Source of the DNA: Klebsiella phage vB_KpnM_Croc_ER14
Reading direction: 5' to 3' (one strand)
DNA length: 64,000 nucleotides
Sequence record: PP738763.1
In this document: positions 7,989 to 9,373 of the stretch, piece by piece
How the letters are laid out: every line of letters begins with the position of its first letter
Position numbering within the stretch: the first letter of the stretch is position 1
Translations under genes and position numbers: made by a program
Notes under the pieces: generated by a model
Seen by the model: the letters and a program-made list of their open reading frames with translations, nothing else
The model's database searches: none
Told to the model about the DNA's origin: nothing

Positions 7989-8555
7989 ATGAAGACCTTT
8001 CTCGAATTCTTTACCGAACAAGCAGCGCAGCCTGTGACCCATGCTGGTGTACAGGGCAAAAGTGTTACCATCAAAAAGCAAGCTGACGGCACTCAGTGGT
8101 GCTCTGGTACTGTTACCCAGATCACTCCAGACAACGCAGCTGACACCTATAACCTGGAGCTGACCGATGGTAATACCGTCAAAGCAGTGCTGACCCCGGA
8201 CCAGGTACACGCGGTGTCTCAGGGACAGGAAGTCGTAGCCGTTCATGACGGTTTCGAATTCTTCTTTGGTAAGTCTGCTGACAAAGGCCAGGTCACTGAA
8301 GCATATGCTCAGGAACTCGCCAATATGGACAAAATGATCGGTAAGGCGCTGGGCGTCGGTAAATCTCGCAAGAGCGGGCGTACCGAATTTGAATATTCGG
8401 GCATCCCCGGTATCGGCAAATCTGTTGCTATCGACTTCGGCGGCGAAGACGACCCGTATGTGATCGTCACCATGGGCGGAAAGCAACAGGACATCAGCAA
8501 AGGTAAAACGCTGGCTGCTGACATTGCCAAGTACCTGGGTGTCAAGCCTCAGTAA
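7989..8555 (+). CDS. internal-protein candidate with capsid-targeting sequence (MKTFLEFFTE)
   Basis: N-terminus matches the T4 IP capsid-targeting consensus (MKTYQEFIAE-like, Glu cleavage site). SD ggag. Confidence 0.6.
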   Translation: MKTFLEFFTEQAAQPVTHAGVQGKSVTIKKQADGTQWCSGTVTQITPDNAADTYNLELTDGNTVKAVLTPDQVHAVSQGQEVVAVHDGFEFFFGKSADKGQVTEAYAQELANMDKMIGKALGVGKSRKSGRTEFEYSGIPGIGKSVAIDFGGEDDPYVIVTMGGKQQDISKGKTLAADIAKYLGVKPQ

Positions 8556-8564
8556 GGAACTCGA

Positions 8565-8744
8565 GTGAAAACATTTCAAGATTTCTTGAAAGAATCACCG
8601 GATTACCAAGAAATTGGCAACCGTAAATTCAGACGAAAAGATGGTTCTTGGATAGAACTGATTCCGGCTGATGAGCACGGTGAATTACCTCCAGCCACGA
8701 TAACGATCAGCCCAGAAATGGCTAAAGATCTGGGCCTTGGTTAA
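8565..8744 (+). CDS. small internal-protein candidate (59 aa, GTG start, N-terminus KTFQDFLKES)
   Basis: Not in the ORF track (below length cutoff, GTG start). Same CTS-like N-terminus. Ends 3 nt before a bidirectional terminator. Confidence 0.4.
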   Translation: MKTFQDFLKESPDYQEIGNRKFRRKDGSWIELIPADEHGELPPATITISPEMAKDLGLG

Positions 8745-8746
8745 CC

Positions 8747-8773
8747 AAAATCCCCCTTAAATACAGGGGGATT
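8747..8773. terminator. bidirectional terminator hairpin (aaatcccccttaaatacagggggattt)
   Basis: Sits between convergent genes 8565-8744(+) and 8777-9373(-). Confidence 0.65.
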
Positions 8774-8776
8774 TGT

Positions 8777-9373
8777 TTATTTGACGTACATACACACCTG
8801 GGTTTTCTTACCTTTTTCGTTCTTGACGTCCATTAACTTTGAAGCTCCATTTAATTTCATTACAGTCCCTTTTTCTTTGCTGCCGGATGGTAATTCATAT
8901 TCTATCTCATCACCAGGGGAAGGCATCCCGGCATGAGGTCCCATGACCATAGCTATCTTATATCGCGGCATACCAGGGCGACCACCTTTATATGCATACC
9001 AACCACCTTCCATCATATCTTTCCATTGTTTGTTACCATCAACAGAAATATATGAATGGCCCAATGCAAGGAGTTCAATATACTTACCAGATTTATTGAA
9101 TTTAACTTCGCTATCACCATCGAACTTATCCATTTTTGAAAGTGTCGCGAATTGGCCATCTTTGAGACCTGAAATTTGGATAATTTCTTTCGCTCCTGAC
9201 AATATGACCGTTCTACCATCAGGCGTTTCGAATGTGGCCTTATCACCTGTTATGTTAACTTTAGCGAAAGAACCGACATTATCTTCGGTAGAACTTCCGA
9301 TCTTACTGGATTTGATATGAACCGAAATAGGATCTGGTTTTGCTTCTGTAAGAAAATCATGGAAAGTTTTCAT
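8777..9373 (-). CDS. internal-protein candidate with capsid-targeting sequence (MKTFHDFLTE)
   Basis: CTS-like N-terminus. Convergent with the plus-strand IP genes. Confidence 0.6.
   Translation of the reverse strand: MKTFHDFLTEAKPDPISVHIKSSKIGSSTEDNVGSFAKVNITGDKATFETPDGRTVILSGAKEIIQISGLKDGQFATLSKMDKFDGDSEVKFNKSGKYIELLALGHSYISVDGNKQWKDMMEGGWYAYKGGRPGMPRYKIAMVMGPHAGMPSPGDEIEYELPSGSKEKGTVMKLNGASKLMDVKNEKGKKTQVCMYVK

Follow-up and report, generated by a model that had tools for sequence, protein, structure and literature searches.

A T4-type leader shared by unrelated small proteins of a Klebsiella Ackermannviridae phage points to internal head proteins

Why should open reading frames (ORFs) that encode unrelated proteins begin with the same ten residues? 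The question is raised by a 64,000-nt stretch of Klebsiella phage vB_KpnM_Croc_ER14 (PP738763.1), the whole of which was analysed and is referred to here as the window. Three adjacent ORFs near one end, ORF1, ORF2 and ORF3, and a fourth, ORF4, near the other share a leader of the type MKTFxDFLxE. An earlier note on this DNA had likened the leader to the capsid-targeting sequence carried by internal proteins (IPs) of phage T4. We consider it probable that ORF1 to ORF4, and probably also ORF0, a large ORF upstream of ORF1, code for proteins that are housed inside the head in the manner of the T4 IPs, and capsid targeting is likely to be the best explanation of the leader. We propose that the amphipathic N-terminal helix MK(T/P/G)F-x-(D/E)-(F/Y)-(L/F)-x-E would act as a capsid-targeting sequence that binds a gp22-type scaffolding core during prohead assembly. 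A gp21-type (Peptidase_S77) prohead protease would then cut after Glu, at F/L-x-E↓A/S/Q in the leader and at V-T-E↓A inside ORF1 (arrows mark known or putative cut sites throughout). The freed bodies would remain in the head with the DNA and exit through the tail at infection; hence, they would act before any phage gene is expressed.

The earlier note had listed four ORFs and their N-termini, and all four are present as listed (Table 1). Translated in six frames, the window contains four instances of the pattern KTFx[DE]F, compared with a mean of 0.01 in nucleotide shuffles and 0.045 in residue shuffles (maximum 1). All four occurrences lie directly behind a start codon, 2–15 codons from the upstream stop. 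Compared pairwise, the leaders are identical at just 20–22 of 30 nt, and the same residues are often encoded by different codons (1–5 per pair). Identical residues written in different codons indicate that selection acts on the peptide. Behind the common leader the bodies are divergent, as had been claimed: an all-against-all blastp comparison of residues 12 to the end gave no mutual similarity (E ≥ 0.3), and the PHROG families of the bodies are different or absent. Two other readings of the leader were rejected. It is acidic and amphipathic and has no hydrophobic core, which does not fit a signal peptide or lipoprotein, and the differing codons speak against a cassette conserved at the DNA level.

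How closely do these leaders match the T4 sequence? In the T4 record (NC_000866), ipII and ipIII start MKTYQEFIAE↓A and ipI starts MKTFKEFTSTTTPVSTITE↓A (MKTFKEF..). Packaging of IPIII needs the first ten residues only, with targeting mapped to residues 4 and 7 and processing to residues 8 and 10; Asp at position 10 blocks cleavage and leaves targeting intact (review of Black's work, PMC9026906). The leaders of ORF1, ORF2 and ORF3 have F4, F7, F/L8 and E10, the residues that in T4 map to targeting and processing. Among 19 relatives of ORF1, the sole invariant residues are M1, F4, E10 and E104, and position 7 is F or Y in 18 and H in one. All relatives of ORF3 keep the leader pattern with Ala next, and one has a long, IPI-like leader, MKNFKDFTSDKLLE↓A. 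AlphaFold2 models the leader as a short helix followed by disorder, the helix of ORF1 spanning residues 4–13. The putative cut sites are LTE↓A in ORF3, LKE↓S in ORF2, and FTE↓Q (leader) and VTE↓A (internal) in ORF1. For comparison, T4 Alt is processed at ITE-6 and LTE-619 (PMC5694885).

A capsid-targeting sequence presupposes a T4-type scaffold and protease, and both are encoded in a near-identical relative. Positions 7000–10500 of the window share 98.6% identity with Klebsiella phage FKP10 (PP974338), a member of Taipeivirus in the Ackermannviridae, and the source of the window is likewise an Ackermannviridae (Taipeivirus) Klebsiella phage. The same region matches 79 phage records, with coverage of 71% to 100% among the 20 best-matching of the 79, which shows that the locus is variable between close relatives. 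FKP10 is annotated with a T4-like gene set that includes a gp55-type late sigma factor, gp46/47, a primase, rIIA/B, baseplate proteins, a Hoc-like protein and others. In a profile search its head genes matched Peptidase_S77 at 100 bits, T4_CASP at 168 bits and Gp23 at 409 bits, the first being a prohead protease of the gp21 type, the second a scaffold of the gp22 type and the third a gp23 capsid protein. The scaffold contains 11 [LIVFM]xE↓[AGS] sites and has the N-terminus MKPELQKLFE↓G. We also noted a 102-aa prohead core protein (FKP10, locus L003, 35387–35695; LIMEstone1 ORF141, a confirmed structural protein) that starts MEIKEIATFADFLASRMDE and contains TFADFLA. Its TFxDFL core is the same as that of the leaders, which hints that the motif may be a scaffold-binding element.

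If the leader targets proteins to the head, it should not occur on unrelated non-virion proteins, and the earlier note had named such an occurrence as a reason to abandon the idea. A looser form of the motif has ten matches in the complete FKP10 genome, seven of them at ORF starts, and no non-virion protein is known among these seven. They comprise the four ORFs, a 152-aa protein and a 58-aa ORF that is present twice; a still looser scan added only the 925-aa ORF0. No replication, nucleotide-metabolism or lysis gene in the FKP10 scan starts with the motif. The 152-aa protein (FKP10 PP974338 151929–152387, minus strand; outside the window) has the leader MKTFLDFLRE and matches the Pfam family ART-PolyVal, an ADP-ribosyltransferase (ART) family, at 41.4 bits (cutoff 31.2). 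LIMEstone1 ORF173 (MKTFLQYLQE; locus L013, 35190–35648) is 67% identical to it. This leader-bearing ART-PolyVal protein may correspond to Alt, which T4 injects. A late-promoter-like element, CCTAAATACCCC, lies upstream of the ART-PolyVal gene of FKP10. The two copies of the 58-aa ORF (MKSFSDYLSE; FKP10 156734–156913 and 157734–157913, minus strand) are 1 kb apart in a duplicated tRNA segment. The FKP10 record calls this tRNA-region ORF a "head maturation protease", a label that seems to be an artefact of annotation.

Are the products of the locus found in virions? In LIMEstone1, both the sequence record and published mass spectrometry (MS) list ORF080, ORF081/082, ORF078 (Dps-like) and ORF173 as confirmed structural proteins. 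ORF080 (MKPFIQYFNE) is the homologue of ORF1, and ORF081/082, detected with 23 and 4 peptides, is the homologue of ORF0. In CsCl-purified virions of the Kuttervirus Sajous1, gp214, gp215, gp216 and gp217 were detected with 196, 32, 20 and 10 spectra, respectively (PMC10892097). The GenBank record of Sajous1 identifies gp214 as a 795-aa homologue of ORF0 (MAIPSFLNFLEESKQLDE↓AF), gp215 as the homologue of ORF1 (MKPFIEYFKE), gp216 as a 79-aa leader-bearing protein at the position of ORF2 (MKGFPDFLKE↓A), and gp217 as the Dps-like protein. The leader is present in all of gp214, gp215 and gp216. No paper in the literature searched pairs "capsid targeting" with the name of any member of the Ackermannviridae, and internal proteins or a targeting sequence for the family go unmentioned there, including in a 2024 family review, which does not mention internal proteins, proheads or anti-defence. 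In that literature, the virion-detected products of this locus are never read as internal head proteins. The mature N-terminal peptides predicted from the putative cut sites are QAAQPVTHAGVQGK (after E10) and AYAQELANMDK (after E104) for ORF1, SPDYQEIGNR for ORF2, AKPDPISVHIK for ORF3, and AFNSAPYELTMGK for ORF0 after its leader.

The architecture of the proteins is also consistent with processing. E104, the fourth invariant residue of the ORF1 family, lies in G-x-V-T-E↓A, and the residues just before it (96–101) have an AlphaFold2 confidence (predicted local distance difference test, pLDDT) below 50. Short members of the family, such as phiMAM1 gp117, stop at ..ATE. Members of the CBA120/SFP10 type and others have different C-terminal modules that start directly after VTEA, and one of these modules corresponds to the 79-aa protein's body, found in other phages directly behind a leader of its own. 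The body of ORF2 behaves similarly. It is 83–100% covered at 77–98% identity in 20 of the 25 matching records, and in KP6F1 and May it forms the end of a 142-aa protein composed of MRGFQDFLTE↓A, an 80-aa module, KKLKTE↓A and then the ORF2 body. In a DNA alignment of ORF2 with KP6F1, the body is nearly identical and the leader much more divergent. The extra 80-aa module carries "KLNLPPIP", a motif that also occurs twice in ORF0 and once in the C-terminal module of CBA120-type ORF1 proteins, and the 79-aa body has a weak match in the C-terminal barrel of ORF3 (pairwise E of 3e-4). Together, these comparisons depict small domains that are exchanged at the leader or at Glu-Ala junctions. Such exchange is expected if the junctions are protease sites that release each module.

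Not all of the genes have the same history. ORF1 is found in 278 phage records and ORF4 in 279, across the family, which makes a conserved role more likely for these two. ORF2 and ORF3 are sporadic (25 and 14 records, respectively). The GC content at third codon positions (GC3) of ORF2 and ORF3 is 0.34–0.35 (0.35 for ORF2), compared with 0.57–0.62 for ORF1, the Dps-like gene and the primase gene, which suggests that ORF2 and ORF3 were acquired recently. Remote homologues of ORF3 form only 4–5 clusters among 1.8–5.8 billion proteins; the four clusters with contigs on record (P0002–P0005) come from contigs of 13.5–160 kb, three of them of ~156–160 kb. Judged by distribution and composition, ORF2 and ORF3 alone have the appearance of accessory genes shaped by an arms race.

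The leader is not confined to this family. We scanned IMG/VR with the back-translated leader ATGAARACNTWYNNNGANTTYYTNNNNGAR, using the same codons in reversed order as a control, and found at least 120 loci compared with 5 for the control. Among the 128 matches listed, 120 are at ORF starts, with a stop within 25 codons upstream, and the residue after Glu is S, A or G in 88. The 117 complete bodies among the matches listed fall into at least 59 unrelated families, and 73 of the 120 loci listed have T4-type core genes in their short flanks. The spread of the leader, together with its T4-type neighbours, marks it as a hallmark of T4-like phages generally. One recurrent body family among these loci (L016–L135) starts MKTFKEFLDESSLSRIKSKSDKGG.

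The interpretation of the leader put forward in the earlier note is thus well supported by residues mapped in T4, by the head genes of the lineage and by virion homologues in relatives, and this support is indirect. Several observations weigh against it. ORF4 has E9 and D10, and Asp10 blocks processing in T4. The head genes were read in the relative FKP10, and are located outside the 64-kb window. Detection in virions likewise comes from the relatives LIMEstone1 and Sajous1 and not from the phage of the window; it covers homologues of ORF0, ORF1 and the gene at the position of ORF2, and none of ORF3 or ORF4. In LIMEstone1, ORF080 and ORF173 are supported by only 2 and 1 peptides, some non-structural proteins were also caught at low coverage, and the small leader-bearing ORFs 007, 079 and 167 escaped detection. 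Moreover, MS of virions does not separate head from tail. Searches of Pfam, PHROGs, NCBIfam and protein folds gave no specific function above threshold for any of the bodies. Finally, neither the T4 late promoter TATAAATA (2 occurrences, 1.7 expected) nor CTAAATA (5 occurrences, 5.9 expected) is enriched in the window. For the protein products, we infer core binding, cleavage, placement in the head and not in the tail, ejection, and the function of each body.

Could the leader-bearing proteins simply be accessories of the prohead core, which assist assembly or DNA condensation and are then degraded or retained as inert, charge-balancing filler, with no effector role in the host? The family-wide presence of ORF1 and ORF4 (278 and 279 records) is unlike that of arms-race genes, the body of ORF4 is Lys/Glu-rich and of low complexity, and no body resembles a known effector. 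The 102-aa prohead core protein (LIMEstone1 ORF141) has TFADFLA, and the scaffold itself starts MKPELQKLFE↓G. However, the sporadic, low-GC3, cassette-exchanged ORF2 and ORF3 fit accessory functions; a leader-bearing protein of an ADP-ribosyltransferase family, LIMEstone1 ORF173, is found in the virion, in parallel with the injected T4 Alt; and T4 Ip1, Ip2 and Ip3 all turn out to be inhibitors of GmrSD (PMC12373910). We regard a role limited to the core as unlikely.

A different location has been suggested for the corresponding proteins of Sajous1. On the basis of Phyre2 hits (TOBE-like and ferritin) and of virion detection, gp214–gp217 were proposed to form a "ferrojan horse" operon (PMC10892097), in which case the proteins would belong to the tail or baseplate and serve iron or molybdate entry, and would not be head contents. 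ORF1 does have a sub-threshold Pfam match to TOBE (21.2 bits, cutoff 22.3), alongside one to DUF4402 and PHROG matches of unknown function, and the neighbouring Dps-like protein is ferritin-like. On the other hand, dependence on TonB or FeoB was not found in the same study, the Phyre2 confidences were low, none of our scans detected similarity to tail proteins, and the proposal leaves the shared T4-type leader and the Glu-Ala junctions unexplained; we regard it as very unlikely. We give slightly less credence still to the idea that the common N-terminus is unconnected with the virion and is either a DNA-level cassette for initiating translation or for recombination, or a peptide tag used in a different process within the cell. 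Conserved 5ʹ ends could favour cassette exchange, and the differing leaders and near-identical bodies of ORF2 and its KP6F1 counterpart indicate recombination near the leader. Yet an identity of 20–22 of 30 nt with differing codons reflects constraint on the peptide and offers little sequence for homologous recombination. In addition, the xxE↓A junction chemistry recurs inside proteins, virions contain those leader-bearing proteins whose size permits detection, and in metagenomes the leader co-occurs with T4-type head genes.

What might proteins delivered from the head do? Capsid-carried proteins arrive in the host ahead of all phage gene expression. The inhibition of GmrSD, a type IV restriction enzyme, by all three T4 proteins, and the hypermodified thymidine described for the DNA of ViI-type phages in passages of PMC5889632 and PMC6449724, make an anti-restriction role for the bodies of ORF2 and ORF3 a reasonable guess, and only a guess. 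From their distribution, it is plausible that ORF2 and ORF3 are host-specific or anti-defence effectors. The earlier note had presented the whole group as "prime candidates" for injected anti-defence effectors; by analogy with T4, that description would fit only in part, for the accessory members alone. A bolder and distinctly speculative possibility is that T4-like phages possess a general plug-in system made up of the leader together with the internal xTE↓A junctions. A small domain of any kind, set behind one or the other, would enter the prohead and be freed by the protease, which would let phages exchange their injected cargo in cassette form. ORF2 and ORF3 might then be new injected inhibitors of enterobacterial defences, for example of enzymes that attack the DNA of Ackermannviridae with its hypermodified thymidine, and the leader ORFs in metagenomes might form a large, unexplored catalogue of first-wave effectors.

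Phages of the Ackermannviridae are in wide use for therapy and biocontrol against Klebsiella, Salmonella, E. coli O157 and Dickeya, and their host range is discussed almost wholly in terms of tailspikes. If the products of this locus are internal head proteins, a long-noted cluster of "unknown structural proteins" would be explained, as an alternative to the "ferrojan horse" reading, and ORF2 and ORF3 would be concrete accessory candidates for host-range determinants that act after adsorption. The leader would provide a ten-residue tag for engineering protein cargo into Ackermannviridae phages, and a simple sequence handle with which to mine metagenomes for the injected effectors of T4-like phages. 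The present analysis adds three things: it reinterprets published virion proteins, describes a cassette architecture built on Glu-Ala junctions, and shows how widely the leader occurs in metagenomes.

Table 1. Features of the leader-bearing locus and its surroundings (positions in the window)
Feature	Position	Strand	Description
ORF0	5158–7935	+	925-aa large virion protein; variant leader MSTPNFLDFMKERDQLDE↓AF
GC-rich hairpin between ORF0 and ORF1	7939–7960	.	LIMEstone1 equivalent is followed by TATAAATA, annotated there as late promoter
ORF1	7989–8555	+	188 aa; leader MKTFLEFFTE; beta-rich N-domain (~25–93), disordered linker, C-domain (104–183)
ORF1 leader, residues 1–10	7989–8018	+	Putative capsid-targeting propeptide; M1, F4 and E10 invariant in 19 relatives
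ORF1 internal junction GQVTE↓A, residues 100–105	8286–8303	+	Putative second protease site, module boundary
ORF2	8565–8744	+	59 aa; GTG start; leader (M)KTFQDFLKE and 49-aa body
Terminator-like hairpin	8748–8774	.	Both strands; common to convergent ORF2 and ORF3
ORF3	8777–9373	-	198 aa; leader MKTFHDFLTE↓A and body of small beta-barrels; rare accessory gene
CTATATAATA	9401–9410	-	Late-promoter-like, ~30 nt upstream of ORF3; resembles [CT]TAAATA / TATAAATA inexactly; weak evidence
CTAAATA	9428–9434	+	Late-promoter-like element upstream of Dps-like gene
Dps/ferritin-like protein (Pfam DUF5856)	9461–9814	+	Virion-associated in relatives; without leader
ORF4	61829–62050	-	73 aa; leader MKTFKDFLED and Lys/Glu-rich, low-complexity body
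Hoc-like head decoration protein with immunoglobulin (Ig) domain	62052–62873	-	LIMEstone1 ORF006 is a confirmed structural protein

The starts of ORF1 and ORF2 are supported by their context. For ORF1 the start codon is ATG 7989, which an AGGAG precedes by 8 nt. We rejected ATG 7962 as an alternative; it abuts the hairpin, has no ribosome-binding site and is missing in other genera. The GTG-initiated ORF2 of the earlier note proved to be a real gene, with AAGGA before GTG 8565, an annotated counterpart in FKP10, and a body conserved at the protein level as far as Erwinia phages. An unannotated homologue of 59 aa (MKTFVEFIRES...) lies directly 3ʹ of the ORF1-position gene in Erwinia phage phiEa2809 (locus L009, 5558–5737). 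ORF4, for which the earlier note gave no strand, is on the minus strand 1 nt 3ʹ of the Hoc-like gene, and the two are likely co-transcribed.

The inventory in the earlier note was right about the four ORFs, and overlooked the variant leader of ORF0, the internal junction of ORF1 and the spread of the leader in T4-like phages. For ORF0, residue 13 of the longer ORF is where the PHROG profile begins, and ATG 5158 has an AGGAG in front of it. The N-termini of ORF0 homologues are conserved across genera and keep the spacing F-x-x-F-(L/M)-x-E. The middle region varies in length between relatives (531–937 aa) and includes two "LKLPxIP..F..A...WWK" modules. By MS, ORF0 homologues are among the most abundant virion proteins of LIMEstone1 and Sajous1. 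The FKP10 annotation of ORF0 as an "endolysin" is supported by no scan in this analysis.

In LIMEstone1, late promoters are annotated before ORF080, ORF078 and ORF173. Elements of the [CT]TAAATA type lie upstream of structural genes and also of the genes for the Dps-like and ART proteins. In this family, [CT]TAAATA(CCCC)-type elements precede structural genes more often than the canonical T4 sequence TATAAATA does. Sigma-70-like sites occur at chance level in the window. Since promoter motifs are not enriched, the timing of expression is read from local context only.

How does this locus compare with known systems for carrying proteins in phage heads? The Dar proteins of phage P1 resemble it in function only, as capsid-carried anti-restriction proteins that are delivered with the DNA. 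They have no shared leader and no T4-type protease processing, and are loaded hierarchically via DarA and Hdf. The ejection proteins of giant phiKZ-like phages (SPN3US, 201phi2-1) are head proteins cut after Glu by an S77-related protease, some of their propeptides have several cleavage sites, and paralogues have identical N-termini. However, their motif is (S/A/G)-x-E, their propeptides are long, the MKTFxDFLxE leader is absent, and the scaffold system is a different one.

T4 Alt shares with the window the (I/L/V)-T-E type of protease motif, as in LTE↓A of ORF3 and VTE↓A of ORF1, and the same lineage encodes the leader-bearing ART-PolyVal protein, virion-confirmed in LIMEstone1 (ORF173). This protein differs from Alt in its ART family and is far shorter (152 aa); its gene is outside the window, and the ORFs of the window have no enzymatic signature.

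The system taken here as the model is that of T4 IPI, IPII and IPIII (Mullaney & Black 1996, summarised in PMC9026906, PMC3012670 and PMC5694885). The differences are these: the phage of the window belongs to another virus family (Ackermannviridae, Taipeivirus), for which we infer packaging, cleavage and injection; ORF1 and ORF4 are family-wide and not polymorphic; and ORF1 and the 142-aa protein of KP6F1 and May consist of several modules with internal Glu-Ala junctions. No meaningful similarity of the bodies to IPI*, Ip2 or Ip3, in sequence or fold, was found, the matches being weak or confined to the leader; residues 1–41 of ORF4 bear a weak resemblance to IPI (37% across 46 alignment columns, when compared with three sequences only). 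In both cases a ten-residue leader, MKT(F/Y)x(D/E)F(L/I/F)xE, is followed by A, S or Q, and precedes small, unrelated bodies encoded at a variable locus with accessory members; and the lineage of the window has a gp21-family protease, a gp22-family scaffold, and homologues of the leader-bearing proteins in purified virions.

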